Positions 22,641 through 56,998 of a DNA stretch of 64,000 bases are shown here, piece by piece. Location of the stretch: positions 96,001-160,000 of the forward strand of contig CAWJZV010000025.1 in NCBI GenBank assembly GCA_963847445.1, in the 5' to 3' direction. Both the position numbers and the translations under genes were made by a program. The stretch's first letter is position 1; each line of letters opens with the position of its first letter. A model generated the notes under the pieces. It searched no databases, was not told the origin of the DNA, and saw nothing but the letters and a program-made list of their open reading frames with translations. The stretch is from an uncultured delta proteobacterium. Its GTDB lineage: Bacteria > Desulfobacterota > Binatia > UBA9968.

Positions 22641-22656
22641 CGCAAATGTCATGCCG
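22641..22656 (-). promoter_or_regulatory. sigma54 promoter of nucleotidyltransferase
   Basis: Minus strand CGGCATGACATTTGCG (GG-N10-GC). Confidence 0.7.
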
Positions 22657-22707
22657 CCAGTTGCCGCTGCGCGATCGCCAATGGTTCGCGGCTTTCGCAG
22701 AAAAACC

Positions 22708-22754
22708 TTCGCAGATTCGACAGCGGGTCGGCGATTATTTCGCAGGTCTGACAA
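22708..22754. promoter_or_regulatory. Tandem enhancer (UAS) pair, 31-bp spacing
   Basis: TTCGCAGATTCGACAG (22708) and TTCGCAGGTCTGACAA (22739). Confidence 0.7.
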
Positions 22755-22835
22755 ACGCCGAATTAGCAGCGGCGAACGATCCGAGAATTCCGTAGCAATC
22801 CAAGGCCTCGTGGCTGGGCGCAGCGCCGCTGTTGT

Positions 22836-22851
22836 GGGCACGTCCTTTGCC
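22836..22851 (+). promoter_or_regulatory. sigma54 promoter of USP operon
   Basis: GGGCACGTCCTTTGCC (GGCACG-N4-TTGC). Confidence 0.8.
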
Positions 22852-22902
22852 TAATGATTCAGTGAGCGGGGCGAAAGCAGTAACGGTAAACCATTAAGGA
22901 GG

Positions 22903-23424
22903 ATGGCGATGAGCGAATTCAAACGCATACTTTGTCCGGTCGATCTATCCGAGTTTTCGTTGGAGGCGTTGCGCTTGGCAGCGCAACTGGCCGACCGTAA
23001 CAGCGCGGTGTTGGATATTTTGCACGTTATCCATAATCCCTTCGACGAGCTCTACATGACGTCGATTACTTCGACCGATCCGGCGCTGCTCGACGCCTAT
23101 GCCGCCGAGTCGCGCGAGCGCGCTAAGATCGTCCGTGCCACCGAGGAACACGCCGAGGTTCTGCTTAAGCAGTTCTGCCGCGACGAAGTCAAAGGTGTCG
23201 CCAAAGTCCACTATCACGTTCGCCAGGGCGATCCTTTCGAAAACATCCTCGATGGCGCCGAAGATTTTCTCACCGATCTGATTGTTTTGGCGACCCACGG
23301 ACGCACCGGCATTAAGCGCTTGGTGATCGGCAACGTCGCCGAGAAAGTCGTGCGCCACGCACCCTGCCCGGTGCTGACGGTGAAGCCCAAGAGTTTGCCG
23401 AGAGTGGCAGACGCCGCAGCGTAA
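22903..23424 (+). CDS. Universal stress protein
   Basis: KRILCPVDLS..DLIVLATHGRTG..IGNVAEKVVRHAPCPVLTV; AGGAGG RBS. Confidence 0.95.
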   Translation: MAMSEFKRILCPVDLSEFSLEALRLAAQLADRNSAVLDILHVIHNPFDELYMTSITSTDPALLDAYAAESRERAKIVRATEEHAEVLLKQFCRDEVKGVAKVHYHVRQGDPFENILDGAEDFLTDLIVLATHGRTGIKRLVIGNVAEKVVRHAPCPVLTVKPKSLPRVADAAA

Positions 23425-23434
23425 GGAGGTTGCC

Positions 23435-24308
23435 ATGGGTGTCGCCCATGTCGCGGCGGGTCCGCCGCTCATGCGCATCGTTCATCCCTCGGATTTCTCG
23501 CGTTTGAGCCAAGTCGCCTTTGCCCATGCGCTCAAGATCGCCTTGCTGGCGAAAGCCGAGCTGGAAATCGTTCATGTGCACGGACACAAGATCGGTAAAG
23601 AGAAAGATGTCCATTGGAGCGATTTTCCCGGTGTCCGGGAGACTTTAGCGCGCTGGCAGGTGGTGCCGCCAAGCGCCACCCGCGAAGAAGTTGATAGTAC
23701 CGGATTGCGCGTACGGAAAATTCTCAACTCGGAGGATGATCCGTTGGAGTCGATGGTGCGTTACTGCGCCGACCATCCGCCTGACCTGCTGGTGTTGGCG
23801 ACTTATCAAAGGGAAGGTCTCAACCGCTGGCTGCACCGGGCGGTGGCCGAGCCGCTGGCGCGCCGTTCGCGCGCCATGACGCTGTTCGTGCCAAGCCATG
23901 GCCGGCAATTTGTTTCACCCGCCAATGGCGCTGTGCAGCTCAGCAAAATTCTTCTGCCGGTGGATCATCAGCCTAACGCGCAGGCGGCAGTGGAGGAGGC
24001 GTTTTTTTCTCGCCGAAGGTTTGGGTTGCCGCGACGTCGAGTTCAAGTTGCTCCATATCGGCACCGACAAAGGTATGCCGACGCTATTTTTGCCGCACCA
24101 GTCCGATTACCGATGGAAAGAACGCTTGGTGAACGGCGATGTGGTGCAGACGATTGAAAGGGAAGCCGAGCAGTGGACCCCGGATTTGATCGTGTTTACG
24201 ACCGAGGGCCATCGGGACTTTCTCGATGCGCTGCGCGGCAGCACCACGGAGCGAGTGCTGCGCGCCGCCCACTGCCCGGTGCTCGCCGTGCCGGCGAAAG
24301 CGAGTTAG
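23435..24308 (+). CDS. Tandem-domain universal stress protein (frameshift in poly-T near 24005)
   Basis: IVHPSDFS..DLLVLAT; second domain ILLPVD..GSTTERVLRAAHCPVLAV. Confidence 0.9.
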
Positions 24309-24339
24309 TGCCGCTGCGGAGATCGCAGGGAATTCGAGG

Positions 24340-24650
24340 TTTCGGCACAGAGCACACAGAGACCACAGAGTAGAAGATTCGGAGCCGGAGAATTGCCGCG
24401 CCTTCGACGGCTCAGGGCGATCGGGACGCATAGAACCTAGCGCGGCACAACGTAACGAAACATTCGCGCCAAGGTAGAGGGCGGGTTGGAAACCCGTGTG
24501 GCTTTTCATTTCCCGCTTGGGATGGTTGCAATCCCTTGCCTTCACGCTAAGCGCAGTGCCGTCATCCCCGTGACAACGAGGATCTAGGGTTTTCGTAGCG
24601 GCGGGGCGCGACCTGCACTTCGCTGGATTGCCGTTCTGCGCGGGAATTAT
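24340..24650. repeat. Intergenic mosaic of short repeats/REP-like elements
   Basis: CACAGAG x3, CCTTCGACGGCTCAGGGCGA, GTAGAGGGCGGGTTGGAAACCCG, GTCATCCCCG...GCGGGAATTATC. Confidence 0.55.
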
Positions 24651-24716
24651 CGGCAAAGAGAAAATCGACCTCGAGTCGACGCAATCAGAATCCCTCGGTT
24701 TATGGCCGACGAATGT

Positions 24717-25835
24717 TCAATGGATCAATTCCAATGCGATGGAGAAGGCGATTAGTAGAACGATCACCCATTCCAATATTTCCATGCGCCGGTTGGAGGC
24801 CTGATCGGAAATCTTTTCGTAGATGCTCTCCAGGGTTTGCAGTTTTCGCAGAATGCTGGTGTCCCACTCGTCCAGGTGAAAACGCCGGTTGATCAAGCGA
24901 TAGACGCGGGCGAGATACTGGTCGCCCAAAAGTTTCAGGGTGTTGTTGACGCCTTCGAAGAGGATCGCATTGTCGACCTGGAGCTCGGCGACGCTGCGCA
25001 GATCGGCGCCGTAATAGCCTAACAGGCGCGGCAGGCTGAACGCGCGCTTTGAAAGCGTATCGTAGGCTTGATCCAGGGCGCGGTCGAGTTTTTGATCGAG
25101 ATAGCGCATTTCCAATAGCTCGACATTGGCATATTCGAGAACCGCGCGGATATCGTCGCCGTCGCGATCGATGAGCAGAGCGGCATTCCAATCGACGATG
25201 GTCAGGTCTTCCATTCCGTAGGAAATCCGCGCGCCGAATGCCTCGGAGACTTCCTGCTCCGACAAGAGCCGCCGTTCGGCGCGCAGAATCCGCGCGATTT
25301 CCTGACCATGCTGGGCATGGAAAAGGTTGAAGTCGATCGCTTCGGCAAAAGACGCGATGTGAAAGACGATATAGTCTTCCACCACCGACGAGAGCCAGGC
25401 TTGCGCCGCTGCGTCGCCGATGACGTGCAGCAACTGACCGACCCGCAGCCGCGAGTCGGCAAGCAAAGGCTCGTTGTCGTAGAGTTCCTCGCTCAGCGTC
25501 AGCAGTTCGCTAAATGGTCCGGCAATGTCGACCGTATAGGTCACCGCCACCGCGCCGAAATCGTAGAACTGGAGATCGACGCTCGGCCGGGTGAGATAAT
25601 TCCCAAGCTTGATTGCTTCGGTATCTTGAGTCAGACGGAGCGGCGCTGGCTGATACTCGAAGTAGCTAGGAGCAGGCCGTTTGTGCCGCAGGGTTGAACG
25701 TTGCGTCGCTTCATGAATGCGTGCTTCTGCCTTATTGAGATCGATGGAACGCGCCGCGTCATAGGCAAAGGTGATGTAACACAAGCCGTTTAGGATATTG
25801 AGTGTTGGACTGGTTTCCGTCGTCGGTGATGTCAC
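24717..25835 (-). CDS. RMD1/DUF155-like protein with C-terminal TM; start approximate
   Basis: DWNAALL..VLEYANVELLEMRYLD..GDQYLARVY..LEWVIVLLIAFSI; the longer 481-aa ORF overlaps ndvB and is an extension. Confidence 0.75.
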   Translation of the reverse strand: MTSPTTETSPTLNILNGLCYITFAYDAARSIDLNKAEARIHEATQRSTLRHKRPAPSYFEYQPAPLRLTQDTEAIKLGNYLTRPSVDLQFYDFGAVAVTYTVDIAGPFSELLTLSEELYDNEPLLADSRLRVGQLLHVIGDAAAQAWLSSVVEDYIVFHIASFAEAIDFNLFHAQHGQEIARILRAERRLLSEQEVSEAFGARISYGMEDLTIVDWNAALLIDRDGDDIRAVLEYANVELLEMRYLDQKLDRALDQAYDTLSKRAFSLPRLLGYYGADLRSVAELQVDNAILFEGVNNTLKLLGDQYLARVYRLINRRFHLDEWDTSILRKLQTLESIYEKISDQASNRRMEILEWVIVLLIAFSIALELIH

Positions 25836-25980
25836 GGCTATGCTCGGATCAAGTTCAAGATTGGCAATCAACTCGCGAATTATCGCCCCGCTCGCAGATT
25901 GGCAAGCGCTATATCTAGTTCCGTTCTCAGCGCGGGCAATTTTGCCATTGGCTTGAGCGGGCCGCCGTTTGCTCGCGTGG

Positions 25981-28900
25981 TCACAGCGGCATCGCAGCTT
26001 GGAGCGCGACTGAGGCACTCTCTGAGCCAAGAACAACCCGTACCAGATGGGTTGCGCCGTCGTCGGCGAGCTGGATGTGCATGCTGCCGCCTGCGAGCGA
26101 TGCGCCATCGAGATCGATGGATAACACCCCGCGCGCAACGCCTTGTGGGTTCTCGACGGCAATTATGTAGCGCGCCGAGTGATAGCAGAATGCGATGTCA
26201 AAGCGCTTCCATGCACGCGGAATACAAGGGTCGAGATAAAGCCTCGTGCCGCGCACCCGAAAGCCGAGGATCCACTCGATGCCGGCCCGATACATCCAAC
26301 CCGCTGATCCGGTGTACCAGGTCCAGCCGCCGCGACCGACATGTGGCGGTTCGGCATAAATATCAGCGGCGACGACATAGGGTTCGACCTTGTACCGGTA
26401 AACGCCAGTGCGGCTGCTGGCATGATTGATCGGGTTCAAGAGCGCGAAAAGCTCGCCGGCCTTATCGCCGTCGCCGAGCGCGGCGAAGGCGAGGACGGAC
26501 CAGATCGCCGCATGGGTATATTGGCCACCGTTTTCGCGCACGCCGGGCAGGTATCCTTTGATGTAACCCGGGTCCGGGCTTGCTTGGTCAAAGGGCGGGG
26601 TAAATAGCAGGACGAGGTCGTCGCCCCGGCGCACGAGGTACTTCTCAACCGCCGCCATGGCGCGCGCGCCGCGAGCCGGTTCAGCGGCGCCGGAGAGAAC
26701 TCCCCAGGATTGGGCGATCGAATCGATGCGGCATTCCGTGTTGGTGGCGGAGCCGAGCGGGCTGCCATCGTCAAAGTAGGCGCGCCGATACCACTCGCCA
26801 TCCCACGCCCTCGCGTTCGAGCGCTGCTTTCAGCGCGCTGACATGCAGCCGCCAGATTTCGGCGCGCCGATGCTCGCCGCGGGCGTCGGCCACCCGGGCA
26901 AATTCCCAGAGTATGGTGTGAAGAAACCAGCCGAGCCAGACGCTCTCGCCTTTGCCCGCAGATCCGACCCGGTTCATCCCGTCGTTCCAATCTCCCGTGC
27001 CGATCAGCGGCAGGCCATGGCTGCCAACCGCTAGACTACGGTCGAGCGCGCGCGCGCAATGCTCGAACAGGGTAGCGCTTTGCGCGGAGACACGCGGCGC
27101 GAAATATGACTCGTCTTGCCCAGCCTCGAGGGTCGGCCCATCAAGGAAGGGAACGACCTCATCGAGGACTGTGATGTCGCCGGTAACTTCAAGGTATTGG
27201 TTGACCGCGTACGGCAGCCATAGAAGATCGTCGGAAATGCGGGTCCGCACACCCCGGCCGGACGGCGGATGCCACCAGTGCTGGACATCACCCTCGACGA
27301 ACTGCCGTGCGGCGGCGCGCAATAACTGCGCCCGCGCGACGTCTCGATTCGCCACCATGAGCGCCATCACGTCTTGCAGCTGATCGCGAAAGCCATAGGC
27401 ACCGCCCGCCTGATAAAACGCCGCGCGCGCCCAGACGCGACAGGCCAGCGTCTGGTAAAGCAGCCAGCGATTGAGCATCAGGTTCATCGCCCGATCAGGG
27501 GTTGTCACCTGGACCGCGCCAAGCAGGTTGTTCCAGCGCTCCATGACCGCGCGCAGGATTCCATCAAGGTCAGCCCCGCGGTAGAGGGCGATCAGCACCC
27601 GCGCTTCTTCCGCGGTCACCGCCTCGCCGAGGAAAAAGTCGATCTCCGCACGGCCACCGGGACGCAACTCCACCGTCGTCTGCAGGGCAGCGCACGGATC
27701 GAGGCCGGCACCGACCTTGCCTGAGAGTCGGTTGCCTCGTTCGAGCGCGATGGGGTGATCGAGGCTGCCATTGCGACCGAGAAACTCCGTCCGATCACTC
27801 GTCCACTCGGTTTGGCGCCCGCTGAGATCGGCAAACGCGACGCGGCCAGCGAACTCGCTGTTCCAAGCGTTGCGCGCGAGCATGGCCCCTGTTTCCATGT
27901 CGATCTCGGTGACAATAAAAGGCGCGGAGGCGCTCCGCGAAACGCCAAGCACCCACTCGACATACGCGGTCACCGAGAGACGCCTGGATCGACCCGAGTG
28001 ATTCTCGATAGTGAGGCGGGAGATTTTGATTGGGTCCGCCAGCGGTACGAACTGCAAGAGGTCGAGCGAGACCCCATGTGACAGGTGCTCGAAGCGGCTG
28101 TAGCCCTGGCCGTGTCGGGCGGTGTAGGGCGAAGTCTCCTCGCGGATCGGCAGCACCGTCGGGCTCCACAACTCGCCAGTGTCTTCGTCCCGCACGTAGA
28201 TCGTCTCGCCTGGCGGGTCGCTGACCGGGTCATTGGACCACGGCGTGAGCTGGTTCTCACGGCTGTTTAGCGACCAGGTGTAACCCGAACCCGATTCAGA
28301 GACCTGAAAGCCAAAGGTAGGGTTCGCGATCACGTTAATCCAGGGCGCCGGCGTCCATTGCCCCGCGCCGAGAATCGTCACGTATTCACGGCCGTCGGCG
28401 CTGAAGCCGCCGAGGCCGTTGAAGAACTCCAGATCCGGCCGCGGCGGCAAGACTTCCAATGGCTTAGTCGCCGGCGGACGTCGTTGCAGCGCAAGCGCAG
28501 GGGCTTGGGATCGTTGCTGACGTTCTACCTGCTCGGCCAGGGTACCGCGGCGGCTCAAGAGCACAGCTCGCGCCGCGGTCTGGAGTAGCGTGCGATCCTC
28601 AGCCGAAATTAGATCTCCTCGAGAATAAAAACGCGGCCCGACGGTTCCGGCCCATCGTGCGGCAAACGTGACTGGCTAGCCCGGAGCTGGCTCTCCAACA
28701 GGCCCTGGAGATCTTGGGCGTAGGATGGGGCCTGTTCGTTCAGAATAACCAGATCGACCGCTAATTGCTTCATGCGCCAGTATTCGTGGGCGCGGAGCAG
28801 CTGACGTACGATACCCTGGTCCTCAGCCTCATCGATGCGCACGAGGACAATTGGCAGATCGCCGGAAATTCCGTGCCGCCATAGTGCCGCGGGGCCGCGA

Positions 28901-31900
28901 GTATTACCGCGTGAGCACCGCAGATGATCGGCCGCAGTGCAGGGTCGGAGTACAGGATACGGCTGGCGAGATCCTGGAAGAGATGGGCCTCATCGGCGTC
29001 GATGCCGAGATGGCGCAGCTGCACCTGGGCCTGCGTCCACGCCAGTGTGGCGGCGCGCTCAAATGTTGCTGGATTGTTGTACTCGTCGGCCAGGTCGAGC
29101 GCCTCGTCGCGCGATTGCGCGATCAGCGTCGAGAAGGTGACCCGCGCGGAGGCGCCCGGCGCGAGCCGTGACACAGCGCCGGAGACTGAAGATCGGGTCG
29201 AGCACCGCGCCGACCGTGTTGGAGAGCGGGTGGCCATCAATGACCGACATCGGCGTTCGGATGCCGCGCCCGCGACCGAGAAACCGGGCGCGGTCGGTCT
29301 CGTATTCCATGTCGCCGACGGTTTCCCCTTCGGCGACGATGACGTGCGCCGCCCATACTTGCGGCTCGCTCGGTGACCGTGGCCGGCGTGTCGCGAGCAG
29401 GGCGCCGAGTTCGGCAGCAAATTCCGTCTGCACGAACAGATTGGAAAACGCCGGGTGAGCGGCATCGGCTGCCGGCGTCGCCAGGACGATTTCGGCGTAC
29501 GATGTCAGCTCGATCTCTCGGCTTCGCGCTCCGAGATTGGTGATCGACACCCGGCGCACTTCCGCGTCGTGCTCCGGCGAGACGACGATTTCAAGGGTGG
29601 TCGCGATCGCGCCATCGCGCCGCCGGATCTCTACGCGATCTTCGGAAAAAGCCACTTCATAGGTGTCCGGTTCGACGCCGCTCGGTTGGTATGCAGCCGA
29701 CCAGACCTGGCCGCTGTGCCGGTCGCGAAGAAAAAAGTATGTCCCCCAGGCGTCACGCGTGCGGTCCTCGCGCCACCGTGTGACGGCAAGGTCGCGCCAC
29801 CGGCTGTATCCGGAGCCCGCCGTCGTCACCATCACCGCGTATCGCCCATTCGAGAGCAGGTGGGTGGCGGGAGTCAGGTCGTGTGGAGAAGTGAAGCGAC
29901 GCAGGAGCGGTGGCACGAGATCGCGGACGTTGGCGACCGCCCGCACCTCCTCGACTCTGGGCCGGGTGACCAAGACGTCCCGCGGCGTCCGTTCCTGCAA
30001 GCAGCAGCTCGGTGGCTTGCATGCGCGGCTCGGCGTGAAAGCGCGCGCGCATCACGCCATCATGGAGGACATTTGCGAGCGCCACGAGCGACATCCCCTG
30101 GTGATGCGCCATATAGGCGTGCACGACGGCCACGGCTTGGTTCTCGGGCAGGCGCGTGGCGGTGTAATCGAGCGCTTCGTAAAAGCCATAGCGGCCGCTC
30201 GCGCCGGCCTCGGCAAGACGCGCGAAATTCTCTGCCGCCGACTTCGGGTCAATCATCGCCGCCAGCGCCGTCGCGTAGGGCGCGATGACCACGTCTTCAC
30301 TCAGCCCGCGTTTGAGCCCCAGGCCCGGAACGCCAAAATTCGAGTACTGGTAGGTGAGCTCCAGATCGCGTGCGTTGTAGGCCGATTCTGATACTCCCCA
30401 CGGCACGCCACGCTCGTTGCCATAATTTCTCTGACGGCGGACGACGAGAGCGCAGGTCTGGCCTAACAGACTGCCCGACGGCGAATGCATGACGAGCATG
30501 GGCATGAGGTACTCGAACATCGAGCCGGACCAGGAGACCAGCGCAGATCCCCGATCCACGGGCGTCAAAGCGCGACCAAGGTGAAACCAATGGGTCGGCG
30601 GGACGTCACCCTTGGCAATGGCAATAAAGCTTGCGAGGCGCGCCTCAGACGCCAGCAGATCGTAACAACTCGGGTCGAGGCTGTTATCGGCAACGCGGTA
30701 GCCGATCGAGAAGAGCTTGCGGGTCGGGTCGAAGAGAAAGCCAAACTCCATCGCGTCGAACATCGTTTTCGTGTGCGTTACGAGCGTCCAAGGCGGCGGA
30801 GCAACGCTTCGGCTGCTGCGGTCGAGCGCTTGAGGCATCTCAATGACAGTATCGATTCGCGCAAGGGAGTCCCTCGCTGCGGCGCTATCGGACGCCAAGC
30901 GTTCGCGCGCAGCTTCGTCAGTTCGCCTATGACGGTCTCGCACCATTCCGGCGTGTCGGACAGGGTTGGAAACGATGGAAACAAGCGCGATCCCGTCGAA
31001 CCCAACTCTTGTTCGGGAATCGTCGGGCGATTGCTCGGAGTCATTGCCAAAGACCAGCCGCGCCCAGGGAATTGCCGCGTCGAGATCGCGCGCATGACTT
31101 TCGATGGCCACTCGCACAGCTTCCGCCCAGGCGACCAACTCCGCCTCGGCGCTGTCGCCTCGTTCCGCGGTCAGCGTGCGCGCAATGTCCGCCATCGTAT
31201 GAGCCCGGGCCTCGAGCTCAGTGAGGCATGTGACCCATTCGCCTGGAGTCATAGGGACCGGTTCTAGAGCGGCGGTCAGGGCATCGAGCGCCTCATCCAA
31301 GTGTTTGCGGGTGACCGTTTGGGTGCGCCGGTCGTCAACGACTGCGCGTGCCGATTGGCGCAGGAGTAAGATGGCATCGGCGATCCCCGAGAGCGCACGC
31401 GGGCCGAGCAGCGGGCGCTCGATGATCTCTTGGCACGCCTGTCCGAGCGCGATGAGGTGACCGGCGAGGTTGCCACTATCGACCGAGGATATGTATTTGG
31501 GTTCAAGCGGACGCAGGTCACGGGTATCATACCAGTTATAGAAGTGACCGCGAAAACGCTCGAGGTCGTTCATGGTGCCGAGGGTCGCTTCGAGCCGCTC
31601 GATGGCCGCCACCGTGCCGATCCAGCCGAAATCGTGCGCCGCGATGATCGAGAGCAGATACAGCCCGAGGTTGGTCGGCGAGGTGCGGTGGGCCACGACC
31701 GGCAGTCGGTTCTTCCTGAAAATTGTCGGGAGGAAGCGCGTGGTCTTGCGGGCTGACAAAGGTTTCGAAGAATCGCCAGGTCCGCCGCGCGGTCAAGCGC
31801 AGCGTACGGAGGTCATCCTGCCGAGAGCGGCTGAGCCGCAGCTGCGCGCGGTGGCAGGCTGATCCAATAAGCCACCATCGGGCGACAGCGCCCAGAGAAG

Positions 31901-34865
31901 AGCGAAGGGCGCCGCAATCGGCCAGACTTCCGGCGGTTGGAGGGCAACAAGGATGGCTACCAAAGCAGCGAGGGCTACGGTGCCGTTCATGCGGCGATAG
32001 AAGCTGACAAGGCTGAGGTCCAAACCGGACTGCGCTTGCGCTGCCGTCACCCATTCAAGCAGCTTTCGGCGGGTCACATAGACGCGCCAGAGAGTCCGGA
32101 TGATCGCGTCGGTCATCAACCATGCCTGGTCGGCAAGTAATGTGACCGTGAGTCCGACATGCGAAGCGGCAAGCACTAGATCCGTGCCCACCGCCCGTGC
32201 GTGGCTGCGTTTTGAAATTCCGCGGCGATGCGGGATCAGCCCAGTCAAGACCGGACAATAGGGGAGGGATGGCGATGCAGGCGAGCACGAATGTGGTCCA
32301 GATCACCGGCGAAGCGAACGGCAGCGTCCAACCGGCAATCAAGGTCACAAGGGCGGCCGGGGCCGACAGCGTGCGGCGGAGATTATCGAGCATCTTCCAG
32401 CGGCCGATCAGCGGAATCGAGGTACGGACCCGACCGCGGCCCATGTCCGGTGCGTGTCCTATGATCCACGGCAGCAACTGCCAGTCACCGCGCGCCCAGC
32501 GGTGCTGGCGGACCACGGCGACCTCGTAGTGCGCGGGAAACTCCTCGAAGAACTCGATATCGGTGACCAGTCCCGCCCGCGCAAAGATGCCTTCAAAGAG
32601 GTCATGACTTAATAAAGCATTCTCCGGCACCCTGCCGGCGAGGGCGGCCTCAAATGCATCGACGTCGTAGATCCCCTTGCCGATGTAAGAACCTTCGCCG
32701 AAAAGATCCTGATAAACGTCGGAGACGGCCGCGGCGTACGGGTCAATGCCAGCCGGCCCCGAGGAGATCCTCTGAAAAAGTGAACCCTCGCGATCGGTCG
32801 GGAGGGTCGGCGTGACGCGCGGTTGAAGCAAGGCGTAGCCCTCAACGACCCGGCCGACAAGAGGGTCAAACCGAGGCCGATTGAGGGGATGCGCCATTGT
32901 GCCGACCAATCGGCAAGCGGCCCCCCTTGGCAACCGCGTGTCGGCATCCAGGGTGATGACGTAGCGGACGCCGGAAGGAACGATAGGCGCTCGACCGTCC
33001 GCTGACACAAAGGTGGTATCCGTGGCGCCGCGCAACAAGCGATTCAGTTCATGAAGTTTGCCGCGTTTGCGCTCCCAGCCGATCCACTTGCGCTCGCTCT
33101 CGTTCCAGCCGCGCCGGCGGTGGAAAACGAAAAATCGCTCGTTCCCATCCGGCGCGGGCCCATGGCGTCGGTTCAACCGCGCGATGCCGTCGATGGTCGC
33201 GGCCAGCAGTTCGTCGTCTCCCGGCATGTTTTCCTGAGGCGCGTCTGTCCAGTCGGAAAGCAGCGCGAAACGAAGATCGCCATCTGAATTCGCCAGATAG
33301 TGCACTTCCAGCCGCTCGATCTGCTCGGCAATCTGGGCCTGACCGGTCAGGAGCGTCGGGACGACGACCAGGGTCCGCAGATCCGCTGGCACACCATCAC
33401 GGAGCGCGAGCCTCGGCAGCGCCCGCGGCCCAAGCATCTCCGTGACCTCACGATTGACTAGTGCGATCGCCAGATCCGACGCCGGGATGAGAGCAAGAAG
33501 CGCGAGTAAAAAGCACACCCACGACTCCACCTTCGGCTGCGCCGGAATTGAACAGGAACAAACCGAGGATAACAGCGCTGACAATCGCGATAGTTCCAAG
33601 GTAGCGAGGCGTCGCTTGAGTCACATAAGCGCGGCGAAGCCAAGTTTTGACCGGCATGCGAAAGCCGAGTTCCTGTTCGAAGGCGACACGCCCGTTGGCG
33701 ATCAGATAATAGCCGGGATCCGCGCGGCGGTCCGCAGCTGGGTCGCTGGCCCCTGGCGCTTCGACCCTGGACCTGTTTCGCTTGAAAAACCGCCCGCCGG
33801 GCAACTTCACGCTCATCGTGCGGTGAGCGCCGCGAGAGTTCCTCGATGGCACGCCGGTAACGATCTCGGGTCGCGAAGTCCGGCGCGGCAAAGCCGGTGT
33901 CGGCCCAGAGGATTGCGTCGACAAGACTGACGCTCTCGAAGAATTCCGCCCAGTCGAAGGCGGAAATCACGCGCATGCTGGTGATCACGTTGCGCACGGT
34001 CACGTTCATCGCCGCCTGCCGCTGGTGCTCGACCCGGACAATCTCATCGGCCGTTGTGCCCTGAGCTGCCAGGCGTTCCTCAATCCAGCGAAGAGCCGGC
34101 GTGACCACCGGATCCTGGTCGCGCAAGCGCTGGACGAGCTGCACGATGAAGGACGCCGCCAACGGGGCTCCCTCGAACTGCCGCAGGACCGTCGCCGCGG
34201 GCTCGATTGATCGTCCGCCAAGTCCGAGCAGGCGGTCGGCCACCGCGTCAGCCTCCTGGCGTGCCGCTCGGTCATGCGACGATGCGCTCCGCCAGGCGGC
34301 GGAGATTCTCCACGAGCACCACCCGCAAGGTGATCGCGACCGCCCAGAGCTCGCCGATCGTCAACGGCTGCACGCGCTGGTAAGCGCGCACGAACCGACG
34401 AAGCATTTCGGGGTCAAACCGGCTGTCGGTATGGGCGACGAATGCCCAGGCCAGCCCATAGACGCGCGGATACCCCTGGAGTGGACCCTCGGCCAGCTTA
34501 GGCAGTTCTCGGTAATAGCCGGATGGCAGGTCGTCATGGATCTCGCGCAGCTGTTCGTCGACGATGTGATAATTGTCGACCAGCCATTCCGCCGCAGGTG
34601 TGATGGCGCGCTCATCCGGATCGCCTGGGCAATCGCATCGATACGATTCGAGCAGCACCCGCCCGTTGTCCAGCACGCGCGGCAACAGCGGACGACCTTT
34701 GCGCGGCGTGGTCGTGACACGCTGGGCGGCGGCAAGGCTTTCAGCGTGCTGCTCAAGACGCTCGGCGCTGAAGAGTTCAGCCCGAATCGGTTCTTCGAGC
34801 TGCGAAAGAACAACGGCGTCTGAAAGGAGCTTTCGTCGCAGGTTTTGCAGAAATAGTGTTTTCAA
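25981..34865 (-). CDS. ndvB: Cyclic beta-1,2-glucan synthase (Cgs/NdvB; GT84 + glucanase-like + GH94 domains; many frameshifts)
   Basis: PIRAELFSAERL, WERKRGKL, LDADT, SHDLFEG, RQHRWARGDWQ, SWSGSMFEYLMP, YQAGGAYGFRDQLQD, GTGDWNDG, RENGGQYTHAA, in order across ~9 ORF pieces. Confidence 0.95.
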
Positions 34866-37608: not shown

Positions 37609-37626
37609 AGCAAGATTGATGCACAG
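37609..37626 (-). promoter_or_regulatory. Non-canonical sigma54-like promoter (TG at -24)
   Basis: Minus strand CTGTGCATCAATCTTGCT; same variant at 41682. Confidence 0.55.
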
Positions 37627-37676: not shown

Positions 37677-37723
37677 GTCGCATCGCTGACAATTACCCAA
37701 GGGTAATTTTGCGAGAATGCGAA
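37677..37723. promoter_or_regulatory. Tandem UAS pair, 31-bp spacing
   Basis: GTCGCATCGCTGACAA (37677) and TTTGCGAGAATGCGAA (37708). Confidence 0.7.
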
Positions 37724-41681: not shown

Positions 41682-41699
41682 TGCAATTTCGATGCACAG
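41682..41699 (-). promoter_or_regulatory. Non-canonical sigma54-like promoter (TG at -24)
   Basis: Minus strand CTGTGCATCGAAATTGCA. Confidence 0.55.
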
Positions 41700-41749: not shown

Positions 41750-41796
41750 TTTTCATTCTTGGCAATTATGAGGGGGACGATTCGCAAGGTTGGAAA
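41750..41796. promoter_or_regulatory. Tandem UAS pair, 31-bp spacing
   Basis: TTTTCATTCTTGGCAA (41750) and TTCGCAAGGTTGGAAA (41781). Confidence 0.65.
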
Positions 41797-41868: not shown

Positions 41869-41884
41869 TGGCACGTCCGTTGCT
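41869..41884 (+). promoter_or_regulatory. sigma54 promoter (full consensus)
   Basis: TGGCACGTCCGTTGCT. Confidence 0.85.
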
Positions 41885-41922: not shown

Positions 41923-42538
41923 ATGAGCGATGGTTTAAACAGCGCTGGTGATTCAAACTTCTACAAGCGACGCATGATCAGATTAGCGGCGCCGGTGTTG
42001 CTGTTTTTCATTCTGTTTTCTGGCTGCGGGATACCGGTTTCGCGAACGACGATTATTCCTAAAGGAGTTGCGGAAAGCCCAGAACACTTAATGGCAAAGC
42101 TCGATTTGCTGAAAACGGGAATGGAAATCGGCGAAGTGTTTGAACTGCTCGATATCAAGCGAACCACACCAGGGGTGCGGGAATTCGTGACCGCTGAAGA
42201 AAAACAAAGACTCTTGTATGGCGCCAGCCAGATGATCGGCTCTCCAAACGAACTCGAACAATTCCGGGGTCACCTGGGCAAAGCATCGAATTTTCGAAAT
42301 AAAGTTCCGCGATATTGAGAATCGTTTGCTTTTCGATTCCGCTGTTTCTGTGCTCACCACGAAAGCCGGGCCGGATTTCATCAGCTATGTGGTCTTTTAT
42401 GAAGGCAAGCTGATCAATCCGCCGAGTAAGCCTGACAATTTCTATCAGGAAGAGGCGACAAGGATTTATATAAGCGACTTGTTCGGAACCATTTTCAGGG
42501 TTGGGGCGACACGAGGAGTCGGTTCGCTCGGCAACTAG
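41923..42538 (+). CDS. Hypothetical lipoprotein (frameshift near 42290)
   Basis: Lipobox FSGC; ORFs 41923..42318 and 42326..42538 join; AAGGAG RBS. Confidence 0.7.
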
Positions 42539-45542: not shown

Positions 45543-45589
45543 TTGTCATTTCCGCGACGACGGCTGGCGGCGTTTCTCAGGGTTGCAAA
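45543..45589. promoter_or_regulatory. Tandem UAS pair, 31-bp spacing
   Basis: TTGTCATTTCCGCGAC (45543) and TTCTCAGGGTTGCAAA (45574). Confidence 0.7.
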
Positions 45590-45649: not shown

Positions 45650-45665
45650 TGGTTCGTCCTTTGCT
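45650..45665 (+). promoter_or_regulatory. sigma54 promoter of ferritin-like gene
   Basis: TGGTTCGTCCTTTGCT (GG-N10-GC). Confidence 0.7.
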
Positions 45666-45723
45666 AACTCTCTTAGTGCGAGACGATGTTGTGAGCGACC
45701 GCAATGCAGAAAGGGCGATTCCT

Positions 45724-46212
45724 ATGACTTATGAAAAGAGCTGGTCGGATTGGTGGCGGCAGTTTCTCGGTGTCTCTGCCGGGGGTTACGACCACGTTGT
45801 CAAGATTCTTTGCGCCCGTTACGTGGAAGAGATGCAGCATGTGCAGCGCTATACCGAGCACGCCGAACGCATGCAGTATCCGCAGTTTCGCGAGAAACTC
45901 TTGCGCATCGCCGCGGATGAGGCGCGCCACGCCGAGTGGCTGGCGGAAAAGATCACACTCTTTGGCGGCAAGATTCCCAACGTGCCGAAAGAGCCGCCGA
46001 CGACGAAAAACAGCTGGCAATATTTACTGGGCGATCTCGAAGAAGAAAAGCACTGCTCGGACGATCTGATTGAAGTAATGCAGACCGTCCGCAACGAGCT
46101 CCCGGATATCGCCGCGATGCTCGAACGGATCTACGAAGACAGCGAAAGACATCGCAGCGAGATTCGCGGCATGCTGATGCGCAGCGACCCGCAGTCGATC
46201 TGGCCGGCGTGA
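45724..46212 (+). CDS. Ferritin-like di-iron domain protein
   Basis: ExxH motifs EEMQH, DEARHAEWL, EEEKH, SERH. Confidence 0.85.
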   Translation: MTYEKSWSDWWRQFLGVSAGGYDHVVKILCARYVEEMQHVQRYTEHAERMQYPQFREKLLRIAADEARHAEWLAEKITLFGGKIPNVPKEPPTTKNSWQYLLGDLEEEKHCSDDLIEVMQTVRNELPDIAAMLERIYEDSERHRSEIRGMLMRSDPQSIWPA

Positions 46213-51125: not shown

Positions 51126-51201
51126 ATCTTCCGGTTTTCGCTTGTGTCGGCGCCGCGCCGGTCGTCAGAAATGAGAATCTTCGGCATCACTGTTTGCGCT
51201 G

Positions 51202-51579
51202 ATGGGAAATTTGCGCGGGCACTTGATGTTGGATAGCCGCTCGTTCGGCAATATAGCTCCCTCACGAAGCTGGCCCATGATCTTCGACGCACTGCGCCGT
51301 CATATCGCCCAGCAGCAGCCCGAGCGGTTGCGCGAGGTCGTCGATTTATCGATCAAGGACCGCGTGCGGCTGTGGCGATTGCCGAACACGGTTCATGAAA
51401 AATCACAGCTCTATAAAATCAGTCTGACGCATTTGGATCTGAAGAATCTCAATGCCGATGAGATTCGCGATAGTTGTCACGATGCCGTGCTCAGACGCTA
51501 CTGTCCCCTGGCGAACGACGCAGCTTGCCAAGCGTTTGTCGCAAGTAAAGCCGCGCCGCATCGCCAATCCGGTCGTTGA
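51202..51579 (+). pseudogene. Fragment of an archaeo-eukaryotic primase-like gene
   Basis: GHLMLD..FG..VDLSIKDRVRLWRLPNTVHEKSQLYK resembles AEP motif II/III and the RLPNxxHxKSxLYK region; lacks N-terminus. Confidence 0.45.
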
Positions 51580-51718: not shown

Positions 51719-51771
51719 AACTACCTCCGGTTTAAAACCACCGGTATTAACACTGCTGCTCAATTTATAGT

Positions 51772-51787
51772 CGCAAACTCGATGCCA
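51772..51787 (-). promoter_or_regulatory. sigma54 promoter
   Basis: Minus strand TGGCATCGAGTTTGCG. Confidence 0.75.
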
Positions 51788-51794
51788 GCCGCGT

Positions 51795-52202
51795 TTAAGT
51801 CTTGATCTGCGATCGACCGGTGAGGAATCGTTGGATCCACTGATTCACATCGGCAAATTCTAATGGTTTAACGAGATATGCTTGGGCGCCGAGGCGTTGC
51901 GCTTCGCGGCCGTTGGCGACGGCGCCGTAGCGCACCATGCCGAGAATCAATGAATTCGGCAGTTGGCTGCGCGCCTGTTTGACGATGGTGGCCCAGGAAG
52001 GCATTTCCAGATCGGAAAGGATGACTTTGATACTCGGATCGCGGTTAAGCTGAATCAACGCCGTGCCGCTGTCGGCAGCTTCGACGACGTGGTAACCCTC
52101 TTCGCGCAGGAGATCGCTCAAGCTCGTCCGTGAAGTTGGCTCTCTTTCCGCGACGAGAATCCAGGGTGCTACCGTTTGATTTCTCGCTGTGCCATCATCC
52201 AT
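51795..52202 (-). CDS. Atypical single-domain response regulator
   Basis: WILVAERE, VILSDLEMP, YLVKP. Confidence 0.85.
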   Translation of the reverse strand: MDDGTARNQTVAPWILVAEREPTSRTSLSDLLREEGYHVVEAADSGTALIQLNRDPSIKVILSDLEMPSWATIVKQARSQLPNSLILGMVRYGAVANGREAQRLGAQAYLVKPLEFADVNQWIQRFLTGRSQIKT

Positions 52203-52285
52203 TCTCGACTGTGGGAAAATAAACTGCTTTAGATTCCCACTTCTCCTAACGTTAGTTGCGTTAAACCGCTGTCGTTGCACAATGG

Positions 52286-52301
52286 AGCAAGATTGGGTCC
52301 A
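52286..52301 (-). promoter_or_regulatory. sigma54 promoter of receiver gene
   Basis: Minus strand TGGACCCAATCTTGCT. Confidence 0.6.
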
Positions 52302-52327
52302 TTGCGATCAGGTTGGTCCGTTGGCCT

Positions 52328-52343
52328 TGGCAAGAAGAATGCG
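52328..52343 (+). promoter_or_regulatory. sigma54 promoter of cytochrome lipoprotein
   Basis: TGGCAAGAAGAATGCG. Confidence 0.6.
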
Positions 52344-52391
52344 TAGTGCACTTGATGGAGGTGGTTATCTGATGAAATCCGGGAGGCGGCA

Positions 52392-52818: not shown

Positions 52819-52860
52819 TTCCAAGTCTTTAGTTCCGATGCCACTGACCTGTGATTCTTG

Positions 52861-52907
52861 TTTTCAGCGACGAGAATGGGTTTGTATTCATTTCGCGACA
52901 GTGCGAA
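52861..52907. promoter_or_regulatory. Tandem UAS pair, 31-bp spacing, before kinase
   Basis: TTTTCAGCGACGAGAA (52861) and TTCGCGACAGTGCGAA (52892). Confidence 0.7.
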
Positions 52908-52916
52908 ATATATCGC

Positions 52917-55327
52917 GTGGCGCAGATCGACTCCCCCAACCACCATCCGACGAAGAGCTTACCTGGCGACTCCGAGGCGCAAAGCTTTGGCAGTCGCGCT
53001 GCTTGTCCTCGTTGCGCTTATGGGAGTCTGGTGGGGCGCTCATGTCCGGTATCGCAACATGCTGCTCACCGAACTTCGCGGCGATGTGTTGGCTGAGCTT
53101 GATCCATACGGCAACGCGCTGACTATCGATCTGCGGCGACGCTTCGATTTGATCTATGGGTTGCGCGGCTGGGTGATAACCAATTCTTCGACGACGGAAC
53201 TCGGCGCCAATTTCGAGACCTTCGCCCGCCAGCTTAGCGAAGGCATCGGCTGGCGTACGCAACTTTAGTCGTCGCGCCGGCGGGGTGGTGCGATTCGTTT
53301 ATCCACGAGCCGGCAACGAGGCGATCCTCGGACGTGATCTTGGTCAACGATCCCCGCGCAGAAGTCCGCGCGGACGCGTCGCGGGCGATGCAATCGGGCA
53401 AGATCGTCATTAGCGGTCCATATGAATTGATAGTCGGCGGCTTTGGCGCAGTAGCGCGATTGGCGATTTTTCGCGAAGAGAAGTTTTGGGGTCATGGTCA
53501 ATGTCACTCTCGACCTGCCGCCGATCTTGGCGGAGGCGGGGATAACTTCTCAAAAAAATTTACAATTGGCGCTGCGCGATGGCCGCGGCCGGGTGTTATT
53601 CGGAGCACCGGCCGTCTTCGATTCTCATCCGGTTATCCATCGCGATCGAATTGCCGGACGGCCACTGGGAACTCGCGGCGATTCCGATTGACGGGTGGAG
53701 CGGCGCCATTCGTCGCGATTTAGCGATATTCGACAGCGGCGCGCTCGCCAGTGCGCTGCTCCTCAGCGCGATCGCCTATTTACTGTCTTTTCGCGATGCG
53801 CGCCTGGCCTTGCGTGTGGCGGAGGGAACCCGCGCGCTTACGAGCTGAGCTCCAGCACCGAACAACCGTTGAAACGGAACTCAGAGCGGCGCGGTCGCGC
53901 TATCAAACTCTCGTCGAGGTCAACCCGGACGCGATGCTGGTTAACTTCAATAAAAAAATTGTCTACGCCAACGACGCGGCGGCCCGTCTGCTCGGCGCGG
54001 CTTCTCCGGAGGATCTACTTGGCCGCTCACCGTTCGAGTTCGTCGAACCGGAACGAAGAGCCGAAGTCGAACAGCGCTACGAGCGGGCAATGGCCTCGGG
54101 CCAGCCCAACCCGCCGAGTATTCAACGCCGGGTCCGTCTCGACGGTTCGTTTGTCTATGCCGAGACCGTCGCCGCGCCGCTGGCGTGGGATGACGGCACA
54201 GCGGTCCAAGTGATCATGCGCGACGTCACCGAACAGCGGCGCGCCGAAGCCTGGGTGCGCAGTCTGATCGATACCACCCAAGACGCGGTGGTGTCCATCG
54301 ATCGGCAGGCGCGAATCGTCCTGTTCAATCCTGCGGCGCAACGAATCTTCGGCTATCGGCCGGAAGAGGTTGTCGGTCAGAAAGTCAACATGCTCATGCC
54401 CGAACCCTACACCTCGGAGCATGATGGCTACATCGAACGGTACGAACGGACCGGCGAAGCTCATGCCATCGGCCGCATCCGCACGGTAACCGCGAAGCGC
54501 AAAAACGGCGAAACCTTTCCGATCGAATTATCGGTGGCGAAGATTACCAGCGACCAGGAAGCTCAATACGGCGCGTTCATCCGCGATATTTCCGATAAGG
54601 TGAGATTGCAACAACAAGCCATCGAAAGCGATCGCTTGGCGACCATCGGCACCATGGCGGCGAAGTTTGGCCATGAGCTCGGTAATCCACTGAACGGGAT
54701 GTCGTTGACCGTTCAGCTTTTGGAGCAACGGCTGAGAAAACAATCGCCGACCCTCGACGAGCAGGCAACTTCAACCCTGGCGCGCTTGAAGACTGAAATA
54801 TCCCGGCTCAACACGCTGCTGCAAGATTTTCGTTCGTTGTCGCGCAAGGAGACCTACAATTTTGAGCCCGCCCAATTGGCCGAACTCGTCGCCGAGGCGA
54901 TCGAGATCGAGTTGCCGGAATATGCCGAACGGGGTGTGAAGGTCGAAGCGCAATTCGCCCCGGACCTGCCGAAAGTACGCGTCGATATCGACAAGATGAA
55001 ACAGGTGATTTTAAACCTGGCCAAGAACGCCGTCGAGGCGATGCCCAACGGCGGCAAACTTTTGTTCACCGGATCGGCCGACAAGGCGGCGGTGATTTTG
55101 GAAGTTACCGACAGCGGTGCGGGTATCCGGCCGAGGTCGATGTCTTCGAGCCGTTCTTTACGACAAAGTCCTTCGGCACCGGTATCGGCATGACCATCGT
55201 CCGGCAAATCCTCGCCGCCCATGGTGGCAGCATCAGTTACAAGAGCGAAGTGGGCAAGGGCACGACATTTACGGTCCGATTGCCGCTGGCCGATGACGGC
55301 AATCCCACAAGCCGCGCTGGCCTGTGA
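52917..55327 (+). CDS. CHASE-PAS-PAS(FixL-type heme)-HisKA sensor kinase (several frameshifts; start approximate)
   Basis: TM, CHASE-like ISGPYELIVGGFGAVARLAIF, TM, PAS, MPEPYTSEHDGYIERYERTGEAHAIGRIRTV, GHELGNPL, NLAKNAVEAM, FFTTKSFGTGIG. Confidence 0.9.
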
Positions 55328-55377
55328 TTTGCTGAAATCTTTGCTCAAGAAAGGATCGCGCAGGTGAACGCCTATTC

Positions 55378-55422
55378 TTTGCAAATTTGCGAAACATGAC
55401 GGCGATTTTGCACTTGTGCGAA
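55378..55422. promoter_or_regulatory. Tandem UAS-like pair (29-bp spacing) before regulator
   Basis: TTTGCAAATTTGCGAA (55378) and TTTGCACTTGTGCGAA (55407). Confidence 0.65.
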
Positions 55423-55433
55423 AGAGCAATTCG

Positions 55434-56793
55434 ATGAGTTCGAACGGCACCATACTCGTAGTCGAAGATCAGGAGAGCGCCCGTGACAGTCTCGTCGAGC
55501 TGCTTGCGCGGCGAGGGTTACGACGTCCATGAGGCGGCGGATGGCAATGAAGGGATCGCCAAGATAAATCAGCTCGATCTCGATGTCGTGCTGACCGATC
55601 TGATGATGCCGGGAGCGGACGGCCTGGCGGTGCTGAAGCATGTCAGCGAGCTGTCGCCGCAGACTATGGTCGTTCTCATGACCGCCCACGCATCGGTGGA
55701 GACGGCCATCGAGGCGATTCGTGCCGGCGCCCAGGATTACCTGCTCAAGCCGTTGGTTTTCGACGATGTCTTGCGCAAGATTCAAAACCTCATGAGCCAT
55801 CGGCAGCTAGCTTGGGAGAACCAGCTGCTCCGGCGCGAAGTCAGCGGCCATTTCGCGCCGGACCGGCCGCTCGGGCGCAGCCCGGCGATGCAGGAGATCG
55901 TCAAGATGATCATGAAGGTGGCGCCGACGCCGACCACGGTGTTGATCAGCGGCGAGAGCGGCGTCGGCAAGGAAGTCGTCGCCCGCACCATCCACGCCAA
56001 CAGTCCGGCCAAAGACAATGTCTTTCTGCCGGTCAACTGTAGCGCGATCCCGGAGAATTTATTGGAGAGCCAGCTCTTCGGCCACATGAAAGGCTCGTTT
56101 ACCGGCGCGGTCAATTCCCAGGAAGGTTTGTTTCAGCGCGCCCGCGGCGGGACGATTTTTCTCGACGAGATCGGCGAGATGCCGATGAGCTTGCAGCCGA
56201 AACTCTTGCGCGTCCTGGAAGAAAAAACCGTCTTGCCGGTGGGCTCGACCAATCCGGTGAAAGTCAACGTGCGCATCCTGGCCGCGTCCAACCGCGACTT
56301 GAAAGCGGAAGTCGAGGCGGGCCGCTTTCGCGAAGATCTTTACTACCGGCTTTGTGTTTTTGAAATCGACATCCCGCCGCTGCGTAAACGGCTGGAAGAT
56401 CTGCCGGCGCTGGTCGAGCATCTGATTCACCGCCATAACCTGGAGATGAAAACCGCCTACAAAGGCGTCGACAGCGCGACCATGCGCATCCTCATGTCGC
56501 TGCCGTGGAAGGGCAACATCCGCGAGCTCGATAACGTGCTCGAGCGGGCGATGATTCTCGGCAACGGCGAATGGATCGCGCCAGCGGATCTGCCGGGCCA
56601 CAGTTCCGCCGCTGCCGACGGCGACTATCGATTGGAAGATAACCTGACCAAAGCGATCGAACTCTATGAAAAAACCCATATCGAACGAACGCTCGGCAAG
56701 ACCGCCGGCGACAAGATCCGCGCGGCGGAGTTGCTGGGCCTGAGTCTGTCGACGCTCTATCGCAAGATCGAAAAGTTGGAAATCGAAGGGTAA
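55434..56793 (+). CDS. NtrC-family sigma54-dependent response regulator (5' frameshift)
   Basis: TILVVED..TDLMMP REC; GESGVGKE, ESQLFGHMKGSFTGA, FLDEIGE, FREDLYYRL, WKGNIREL; Fis HTH AAELLGLSLSTLYRK. Confidence 0.96.
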
Positions 56794-56812
56794 GCGCGCG
56801 GCTTCGCCGCGG

Positions 56813-56852
56813 GTTCAAATCGTTCAAATCGTTCAAGTCGTTCAAAACGTTC
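56813..56852. repeat. 9-bp tandem repeat GTTCAANNC x4
   Basis: GTTCAAATC GTTCAAATC GTTCAAGTC GTTCAAAAC GTTC. Confidence 0.85.
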
Positions 56853-56878
56853 GGATTCAGTCCCCCTTCTCGGAGACT

Positions 56879-56925
56879 TTCGCAATCCTAACAGGCTTCG
56901 TCGGGAAAATTCTCGGCGCTGCGAA
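56879..56925. promoter_or_regulatory. Tandem UAS pair, 31-bp spacing
   Basis: TTCGCAATCCTAACAG (56879) and TTCTCGGCGCTGCGAA (56910). Confidence 0.7.
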
Positions 56926-56982
56926 ATGTGCCGATCCTCCCGCCATTTTACATTGGTATTTCAGCATGCGGCCCGGTCTGCG

Positions 56983-56998
56983 TGGCACACTCTATGCG
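56983..56998 (+). promoter_or_regulatory. sigma54 promoter of SHOCT/CBS/PRTase operon
   Basis: TGGCACACTCTATGCG. Confidence 0.78.

Follow-up and report, generated by a model that had tools for sequence, protein, structure and literature searches.

Paired palindromes as candidate enhancers of a genome-wide sigma-54 regulon in an uncultured Binatia bacterium

A 64,000-nucleotide stretch of DNA from an uncultured delta proteobacterium of the lineage Binatia (contig C25:96001-160000, hereafter the window) carries a short palindrome that recurs in pairs, and raises the question of which protein reads these pairs, for which promoters and in response to which signal. The window belongs to a 7.19-Mb assembly of 48 contigs with a G+C content of 57.5%, a completeness of 91.8% and a contamination of 6.9%. 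The protein-atlas cluster of one protein of the regulon described here consists in its majority of Candidatus Binatota, which are widespread uncultured soil and sediment bacteria. A preliminary description had proposed that the pairs are tandem enhancer sites through which one activator controls a sigma-54-dependent hypoxia or dormancy regulon of about 35 kb. Here, our analyses indicate that the paired palindromes are very probably the enhancer of a sigma-54 regulon and that this regulon extends across the genome. The likely overall explanation is that it would be controlled by an NtrC-family activator and a kinase with a haem-type PAS domain, both encoded in the window.

Paired palindromes in the window and across the genome

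All eight pairs reported initially were recovered at their positions, six with sites starting 31 bp apart, one with a spacing of 29 bp and one of 32 bp, and a ninth pair that had been missed was identified at 51162/51193. The consensus site reads TTCGCA-N4-TGCGAA, with two copies about three helical turns apart; most pairs combine one strong and one weak site, as judged by position weight matrix (PWM) scores, and spacers and flanks vary between copies of the pair. The degenerate pattern by which the sites were first described fits 11 of the 16 sites, those at 22708, 37677, 45543, 56879 and 52234 deviating from it. Counted on both strands, this pattern has 24 matches in the window, at 14 positions. 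That exceeds every one of 100 dinucleotide shuffles of the window (mean 4.81 matches, standard deviation 2.85, maximum 11; 0/100 reach 24).

Across the genome, 3,775 sites lie within three mismatches of the consensus. Distances of 30, 31 and 32 bp between such sites are represented by 7, 10 and 6 pairs, most neighbouring distances having between zero and two, which amounts to 23 pairs at 30-32 bp, where sets of three control spacings give 4.5. When 40 permuted palindromes of equal composition were each compared with their own control spacings, none displayed a similar excess at 30-32 bp. Scanning with the weight matrix returned 60 pairs at spacings of 30-32 bp against 16, 13, 24 and 27 at four control spacings; the site matrix was trained on the 30-32-bp pairs, and the promoter matrix used below on pair-adjacent promoters, which makes counts of this kind partly circular and to that extent weakens them as support. 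Less circular are the distance counts and permuted palindromes above, together with the 6-mer enrichment and the pair counts at regular-expression hits described below. The matrix used is that of the first round, and iteration at a loose threshold was dropped owing to an AT-rich drift, round four giving 242 pairs against 159.5 at control spacings.

Two other repeat families were encountered in the genome. A distance peak at 43 bp is not part of the system, as it stems from an unrelated dispersed repeat in which TTCGCC-N4-GGCGAA is followed by CTCGCAAAGGCGCTAA 43 bp further on (copies at G000:C3:109943, C4:58961, C7:200738, C9:131063, C23:114922 and C45:24230). The palindrome ACCGTT-N4-AACGGT is present in 51 copies (G000:C1:29378, C2:19634, C2:62517 and about 48 more), none of them in the window; in the six copies examined, it forms part of a more extended conserved element that contains nested hairpins and resembles a repetitive extragenic palindrome (REP) or a miniature inverted-repeat transposable element (MITE).

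Sigma-54 promoters, helical phasing and target genes

The genome encodes one rpoN (PF04552 match, E 1.7e-62, C9:43597-44070). The sigma-54 interaction domain has 36 Pfam matches, and several of these correspond to one half of a split gene. In the 150 bp upstream of 414 hits to a loose -24/-12 regular expression, a test that made no use of the motif first described, the most enriched 6-mer was TGCGAA, the half-site of the palindrome (74 observed vs 29.2 expected). A pair scoring at least 16 was found upstream of 34 of these hits and downstream of 2, and pairs at a spacing of 25-27 bp were found at none. Nearly half of the genome-wide pairs (29/60) have a promoter scoring at least 12 within 25-175 bp, giving 35 distinct promoters, compared with 0/16, 3/13, 2/24 and 3/27 at the control spacings and 54/5000 at random positions. 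Seven pairs serve promoters on both sides. The distances from the nearest site centre to the -24 T fall into classes near 37, 47, 59, 68, 80 and 90 bp and are phased at 10.5 bp (Rayleigh R 0.61, p ~1e-6, n = 37), which is the geometry expected of a looping activator. The spacing, the 6-mer enrichment, the promoter link and the phasing thus uphold the initial view of the pairs as tandem enhancer sites of a sigma-54 activator. One further arrangement, at G000:C28:11544-11622, comprises three consecutive sites, 31 and 32 bp apart, between divergent sigma-54 promoters.

The pairs of the window, with their promoters and the genes behind them, are arranged as follows.

22641..22656, minus strand: sigma-54 promoter CGGCATGACATTTGCG, PWM 16.5, 60 bp from the site centre; behind it a nucleotidyl transferase gene (21519-22547)
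22708..22754: enhancer pair, 31-bp spacing, score 26.6, serving two divergent sigma-54 promoters
22836..22851, plus strand: sigma-54 promoter GGGCACGTCCTTTGCC, PWM 13.4, 89 bp from the site centre; behind it genes for a universal stress protein (USP; 22903-23424) and a second USP (23435-24308, split by a frameshift)
37677..37723: enhancer pair, 31-bp spacing, score 27.9; the only element nearby is TGTGCAT..CTTGC at 37624 (minus strand)
41750..41796: enhancer pair, 31-bp spacing, score 26.3
41869..41884, plus strand: sigma-54 promoter TGGCACGTCCGTTGCT, the strongest of the window, PWM 17.8, 80 bp from the site centre; behind it the gene of a 131-amino-acid protein (41923-42318)
45506 down to 42834, minus strand: on the minus side of the 45543 pair, a gene without a name, then YtxH, desaturase and SDH-type protease genes
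45543..45589: enhancer pair between divergent units, score 27.0, with weak promoters at 45650 (plus strand, 10.4) and 45492 (minus strand, 10.7)
45661-46212, plus strand: rubrerythrin/ferritin-like gene, on the plus side of the 45543 pair
51162..51208: enhancer-like pair, score 23.1, conserved in the relative G014; no promoter within 175 bp
51798..52180, minus strand: single-domain response regulator, receiver only (Response_reg E 5.7e-12)
52202..52249: enhancer-like pair, 32-bp spacing, score 21.5, just upstream of the likely start of the receiver gene
52861..52907: enhancer-like pair, score 30.2, overlapping the likely 5' end of the kinase gene
52876..55327, plus strand: sensor kinase with CHASE, PAS, FixL-type haem PAS, HisKA and HATPase domains; start uncertain
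55318..55333, plus strand: sigma-54 promoter TGGCCTGTGATTTGC of the activator gene, PWM 12.0, overlapping the kinase stop codon
55378..55422: best pair of the window, 29-bp spacing, score 37.2, downstream of the 55318 promoter and 12 nucleotides before the ATG
55434..56793, plus strand: NtrC-family enhancer-binding protein with receiver, AAA+ (GSFTGA loop) and HTH_8 domains
56879..56925: enhancer pair, 31-bp spacing, score 24.1, kept in G014, G003 and L033
56983..56998, plus strand: weak sigma-54 promoter TGGCACACTCTATGCG, PWM 10.5, 65 bp from the site centre; behind it a SHOCT gene (57057-57371), CBS genes and a phosphoribosyltransferase gene

Window pairs lie 59-89 bp from the -24 T, measured from the site centre. 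It had been stated that five of the six 31-bp pairs adjoin a -24/-12 element, which is only approximately so: it holds at full strength (PWM at least 12) for 22708 on both strands and for 41750, and with weaker elements (10.4-10.7) for 45543 on both strands and for 56879; the 37677 pair has only an element with TG for GG (11.5), and the 52861 pair only a match of 8.4 at 52988, inside the kinase reading frame. The 52202 pair has a weak plus-strand promoter at 52328, 86 bp away, and is kept in G014 with both weak promoters and in G003 with the plus-strand one; the 52861 pair is kept in G003 and was not found in G014, and the 56983 promoter element is also present in G014 and G003. The absence of a convincing promoter at four pairs (37677, 51162, 52202 and 52861) counts against the model set out below.

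Elements of the form T(G/T)TGCA(C/T)-N5-TTGC, with TG replacing the -24 GG, occur 53-61 bp from a site centre at 37609-37624 and 41682-41697 (both minus strand) and at G000:C30 near 157280, and may be promoter variants or may resemble the half-site by chance. Those at 37624 and 41697 were not counted as promoters and are kept as doubtful, the -24 GG not being conserved, and the CsbD/BON/YtxH block (38-41.6 kb), which had been listed as a unit of the regulon, has only such a doubtful element. A ribonucleotide reductase fragment, likewise listed, is not borne out, for no PF02867 match lies within the window. The 131-amino-acid protein behind the strongest promoter gave no Pfam match and only unnamed clusters in the protein atlas. 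Metatranscriptome contigs from two runs cover 41972-42537 and 45808-46190, both starting inside the reading frame; such RNA-library contigs show that the two target genes are represented in the libraries, not their start, strand or level of transcription, and amount to a weak hint at most, nor does the lack of coverage over the promoter region carry any meaning.

Contrary to the confinement to about 35 kb first proposed, the regulon spans the genome and has 35 promoters; contig C28 holds 12 of the 29 promoter-linked pairs, the largest cluster, and the window only 2. The genes that lead the units encode several USPs (one of them tandem), two Hsp20 proteins, a ribosome hibernation factor fused to a cold-shock domain, LonC-like and Lon proteases, FtsH, a DksA-like protein and DnaJ. 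Others encode CBS proteins, DUF2267, alanine dehydrogenase, a class V fructose bisphosphatase, two pyruvate:ferredoxin oxidoreductases, a formate/nitrite transporter, MgtE, a Band 7 protein, TctCBA, an efflux pump and many small proteins without a known family; hemerythrin is also among the targets. In the locus L035, whose activator is 70% identical to that of the window, neighbouring units comprise class II ribonucleotide reductase, RtcA, CBS, phosphoribosyltransferase, USPs and nitroreductase. A unit behind a pair just outside the window (61495-63999 and beyond, minus strand; L034 16155-20333; promoter 10.9 here and 13.9 in G014) comprises a cytochrome c gene and the gene of an activase of oxygen-sensitive dehydratases, a protein of about 1390 amino acids that combines DUF2229 with two BcrAD/BadFG ATPase domains.

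Between 21000 and 59000, one-base shifts split many genes, often at short single-base runs; examples are the activator start (55434/55483), the kinase (53265-53751), a USP gene (23435-24308) and CBS genes (57681-58730). These splits look like assembly error rather than decay, because the orthologues in other assemblies are intact, and the domain content of split genes was taken from intact orthologues where possible. The same region holds, at 24717-34243 (minus strand), a giant GH94/glucoamylase/glycosyltransferase gene of the cyclic beta-1,2-glucan synthase type in at least six pieces, with a G+C content of 63-65%, above that of its surroundings.

Candidate activators and the signal

The regulator at 55434 is an activator of the NtrC family, in keeping with the initial proposal, and the promoter and sites of its gene are conserved. 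It comprises a receiver (REC), a Sigma54_activat domain (E 7.6e-70) whose loop reads GSFTGA, an AAA lid and HTH_8 (E 1.1e-10). A one-base shift in a G run near 55515 parts its start from the open reading frame at 55483, and the intact orthologue in G003 has 452 amino acids. Orthologues of 80-98% identity are present in 10 same-genus relatives, a count from which the unpublished G005 was left out; the relatives are kin, and counts across them, here and below, overstate independence and should be discounted accordingly. At the activator gene, TGGC-N7-TTGC is invariant in 11/11 aligned genomes, about 55 bp upstream of the double site, in an alignment of 48% mean identity, and a double site with a spacing of 29-32 bp stands just before the activator start in the loci of 10/10 relatives. 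A scan of the gap between kinase and activator found no sigma-70 promoter and no terminator match. Given the 55318 promoter and the sites downstream of it in the leader, the activator gene therefore has a sigma-54 promoter of its own. This arrangement suggests that an enhancer downstream of its promoter probably makes the gene self-activating; the bound protein might also act as a feedback repressor.

One-base shifts divide the adjoining kinase gene among several frames; the intact orthologous kinase of G003 (812 amino acids) has the order CHASE-PAS-PAS-HisKA-HATPase. The second PAS domain matches the haem domains of FixL (1d06, E 1.4e-30; 1dp6, E 3.9e-29) and also E. coli DosP, and retains an EHDGY segment identical to that of the Rhizobium chain, which we take to carry the proximal haem-ligand histidine. 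It is the only FixL-type PAS in the genome, and among relatives such a domain was found in 9/10 genomes with the activator orthologue vs 0/19 others. Kinase and activator are adjacent in G002, G003, G009, G014, G015, G018 and L035.

Taken together, these observations are best accommodated by the following model. Dimers on the two sites would nucleate an AAA+ ring that loops to RNA polymerase-sigma-54 at a -24/-12 promoter on the same helix face, 37-92 bp away, one pair often serving promoters on both sides. The likeliest binder is the response regulator 55434-56793, which, judging from its domains and its own conserved sites, probably recognizes the pairs. Low oxygen would raise the activity of the FixL-type haem PAS kinase (~52876-55327), leading to phosphorylation of the regulator, and the phosphorylated regulator would turn on about 35 promoters across the genome; activation as the direction of control is an inference. 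The resulting programme would include USP and CBS nucleotide-binding stress proteins, proteostasis factors (Hsp20, Lon, FtsH and DnaJ), ribosome hibernation and anaerobic metabolism, and the activator would probably feed back on its own gene through its own sigma-54 promoter and the two downstream sites.

Which signal the kinase perceives is the least firm step of this model. The hypoxia reading gains from the FixL-type haem PAS kinase next to the activator, which supports, without proving, oxygen as the signal, and we moderately favour low oxygen on these grounds. The regulon could instead be real and respond to nitric oxide (NO), carbon monoxide (CO) or redox state at the haem, to a CHASE ligand, or to general energy stress, an option that we consider possible and yet less probable. 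Several points speak for it and against oxygen: haem PAS domains are able to respond to NO, CO or redox state as well; an extracytoplasmic CHASE domain stands ahead of the PAS domains, as in the intact orthologous kinase, and the more distant L035 kinase has GAF in place of CHASE; and the targets form a general stress set as much as an anaerobic one. The link between kinase and activator is likewise incomplete among relatives, which also tells against the model, as no haem PAS was found in G013 (93% complete), where the activator is present, and as the two genes lie on different contigs in G008, G006 and G011, with flanks examined in G008 only. On the other side, the FixL-type PAS with EHDGY is the sole sensor module common to all orthologous kinases examined, and the targets include pyruvate:ferredoxin oxidoreductase, the formate/nitrite transporter and hemerythrin, joined in a relative by class II reductase and nitroreductase. 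In G008 (L119 10893-12389), the activator orthologue adjoins a sigma-70-family gene and a TetR gene, not the haem kinase.

That one activator serves all units, as had been proposed, is a separate and less secure assumption, given the near-identical recognition helix of a sensor-less paralogue inside the regulon. This second activator, of 314-324 amino acids, consists of AAA+ followed by HTH_8 and has no regulatory domain.

G000:C28:37696-40082 (L003 1697-4082): operon of two rubrerythrin-like genes followed by the short activator gene

A DoxX-like gene precedes operons of this type in six loci of relatives. In 11/11 loci with upstream sequence, the operon stands behind a pair (score 20-34) with a strong sigma-54 promoter (16.8-20.3) at 57-62 bp, and the recognition helix of the short activator, LS(S/T)LYRKIE, closely matches that of the window activator. 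From these features, the C28 activator is probably both a target of the regulon and a second reader of the motif. A complex prediction of the short activator with its two rubrerythrin-like neighbours gave no answer in either direction.

The C28 activator might even be the main reader of the motif, with the window regulator only triggering it or binding a subset of sites. Its operon and its recognition helix are as such a role would have them, and the recognition helices of both the short activator and a 61%-identical paralogue on contig C7 are near-identical to that of the window activator, which detracts from the latter's claim. The distribution of pairs bears on the same issue. A pair profile (R1) matches 14-33 times in each of the 10 genomes of the same genus that encode the activator orthologue, 1-17 times in the 7 that lack it, and not at all in 10/12 genomes from two other families. 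Pairs persist in genomes without the orthologue (17 in G016, 9 in G007, 8 in G012 and 6 in G004), so that another protein can use the motif, a further point against the window activator as sole reader; genomes with only the short activator still have pairs, the single match in G017 lies upstream of the short-activator operon, and the two best matches in G007 flank that operon. However, G002, G003, G011 and G018, in which no short activator was found, still have 14-28 matches, more matches accompany the window-type activator (14-33) than the short one alone (1-17), and the window activator has its own conserved sites. We therefore regard a leading role for the C28 activator as rather unlikely, although the two explanations are not exclusive.

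If both proteins read the sites, a two-tier, self-locking dormancy switch can be envisaged, in which the haem kinase would act on the receiver-type activator and this in turn on the sensor-less paralogue; the paralogue would read the same enhancer, its own included, and the stress and hibernation programme would stay on after the signal fades. We put this forward tentatively, as a conjecture with the odds against it.

Binding of the palindrome by a protein other than an enhancer-binding protein, such as a repressor or a nucleoid protein, with sigma-54 promoters nearby by coincidence, appears very improbable. Sites over or just before the gene start at two regulator genes and at the kinase gene are indeed placed as for a repressor, but the three-helical-turn spacing, the 10.5-bp phasing to the -24 element and the pair common to divergent promoters are the signature of a looping activator, and no other regulator gene is consistently linked to the pairs. 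An origin of the pairs by chance or from a dispersed repeat, as the degeneracy of the motif and the spurious 43-bp peak from another repeat family in the same scan might suggest, is already contradicted by the shuffles, the permuted palindromes, the regular-expression pair counts, the varying spacers and flanks, and site positions conserved amid diverging DNA in the 11-genome alignment, and can be practically dismissed.

Comparison with known systems

To our knowledge, nothing is known of gene regulation in Binatota, and open-paper full-text word searches returned no paper on sigma-54 in this group among the top matches listed. The present findings supply a motif and about 35 predicted promoters, as well as one candidate for the sensor and two for the activator, which are testable in vitro without culture. 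Strict helical phasing together with an enhancer common to divergent promoters also makes for a clean natural data set on enhancer geometry.

In enteric bacteria, NtrC binds two dimer sites about three turns apart upstream of the -24/-12 promoter glnAp2, where phosphorylation drives assembly of an AAA+ ring and DNA looping, and it has sites at its own operon. Tandem sites at about this spacing, an AAA+ activator and sites at the regulator's own gene are all encountered here. The motif, signal and regulon differ; moreover, divergent promoters here often draw on a single pair, and the activator gene has its sites downstream of its promoter. Like PspF and HrpRS, the C28 activator lacks a regulatory domain, starts at AAA+ and ends in HTH_8, but it stands behind two small rubrerythrin-like genes instead of a PspA- or HrpV-type partner.

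With FixL/FixJ the system has in common a kinase PAS that aligns with the solved FixL haem domains and keeps EHDGY; unlike there, the partner is REC-AAA+-HTH_8 and not the LuxR-type FixJ, and the kinase carries an extra CHASE domain. Among the matches listed by the word searches, no paper described a FixL-type kinase paired with an NtrC-type activator.

In Mycobacterium tuberculosis, DosR/DevR is a NarL-type regulator that works with the housekeeping sigma factor and GAF-haem kinases. Its regulon resembles the present one in a link, probable here, to hypoxia through a haem kinase and in a wealth of USPs alongside CBS proteins, Hsp20 and a ribosome hibernation-type factor and, when relatives are considered, in class II reductase, phosphoribosyltransferase, nitroreductase and phosphofructokinase. 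Here the predicted regulator is NtrC-type, the kinase has a PAS-haem domain and the box is different; the likeness to DosR is one of gene content, not of descent. The two-tier switch, if true, would be a sigma-54 counterpart of mycobacterial DosR that arose independently in an uncultured phylum, and would for the first time connect enhancer-dependent transcription with a FixL-type oxygen sensor.

The preliminary description recognized no described regulon in this arrangement; a comparable one has been published, the hypoxia-linked, NtrC-type NmpR regulon of Myxococcus xanthus (PMC11841059). NmpR is NtrC-like and acts on sigma-54 promoters through two inverted repeats, GCGCA-N5-TGCGC, with a gap of 14-15 bp; it activates its own promoter and has 7 promoters, with CBS, USP and hemerythrin targets, and in NmpRSTU the hypoxia link runs via a protoglobin haem kinase (NmpU) that feeds a hybrid kinase relay (PMC11841059). 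On this description NmpRSTU, with NmpR, is the closest described system: sigma-54 with two inverted repeats, a half-site core CGCA and a gap of 15 bp here, self-activation (probable here), CBS, USP and hemerythrin targets and a haem-kinase link to hypoxia (likewise probable here) recur in the present system. By the same account, the spacer is N5 there and N4 here, where the outer bases are TT/AA; a protoglobin kinase with a hybrid kinase relay is replaced by a single FixL-type PAS kinase; and 7 promoters contrast with about 35, with proteostasis, ribosome-hibernation and fermentative genes prominent here. No match to protoglobin (PF11563) was found in the studied genome at its 91.8% completeness.

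Should oxygen prove to be the signal, sigma-54 and a FixL-type sensor would govern a large programme of stress response, proteostasis and ribosome hibernation, whose content parallels the DosR and NmpR regulons and whose parts differ from both. Set beside these systems, the sigma-54 regulon emerges as real, conserved and genome-wide, with an oxygen sensor that is plausible and with textbook machinery that is wired in a new way.

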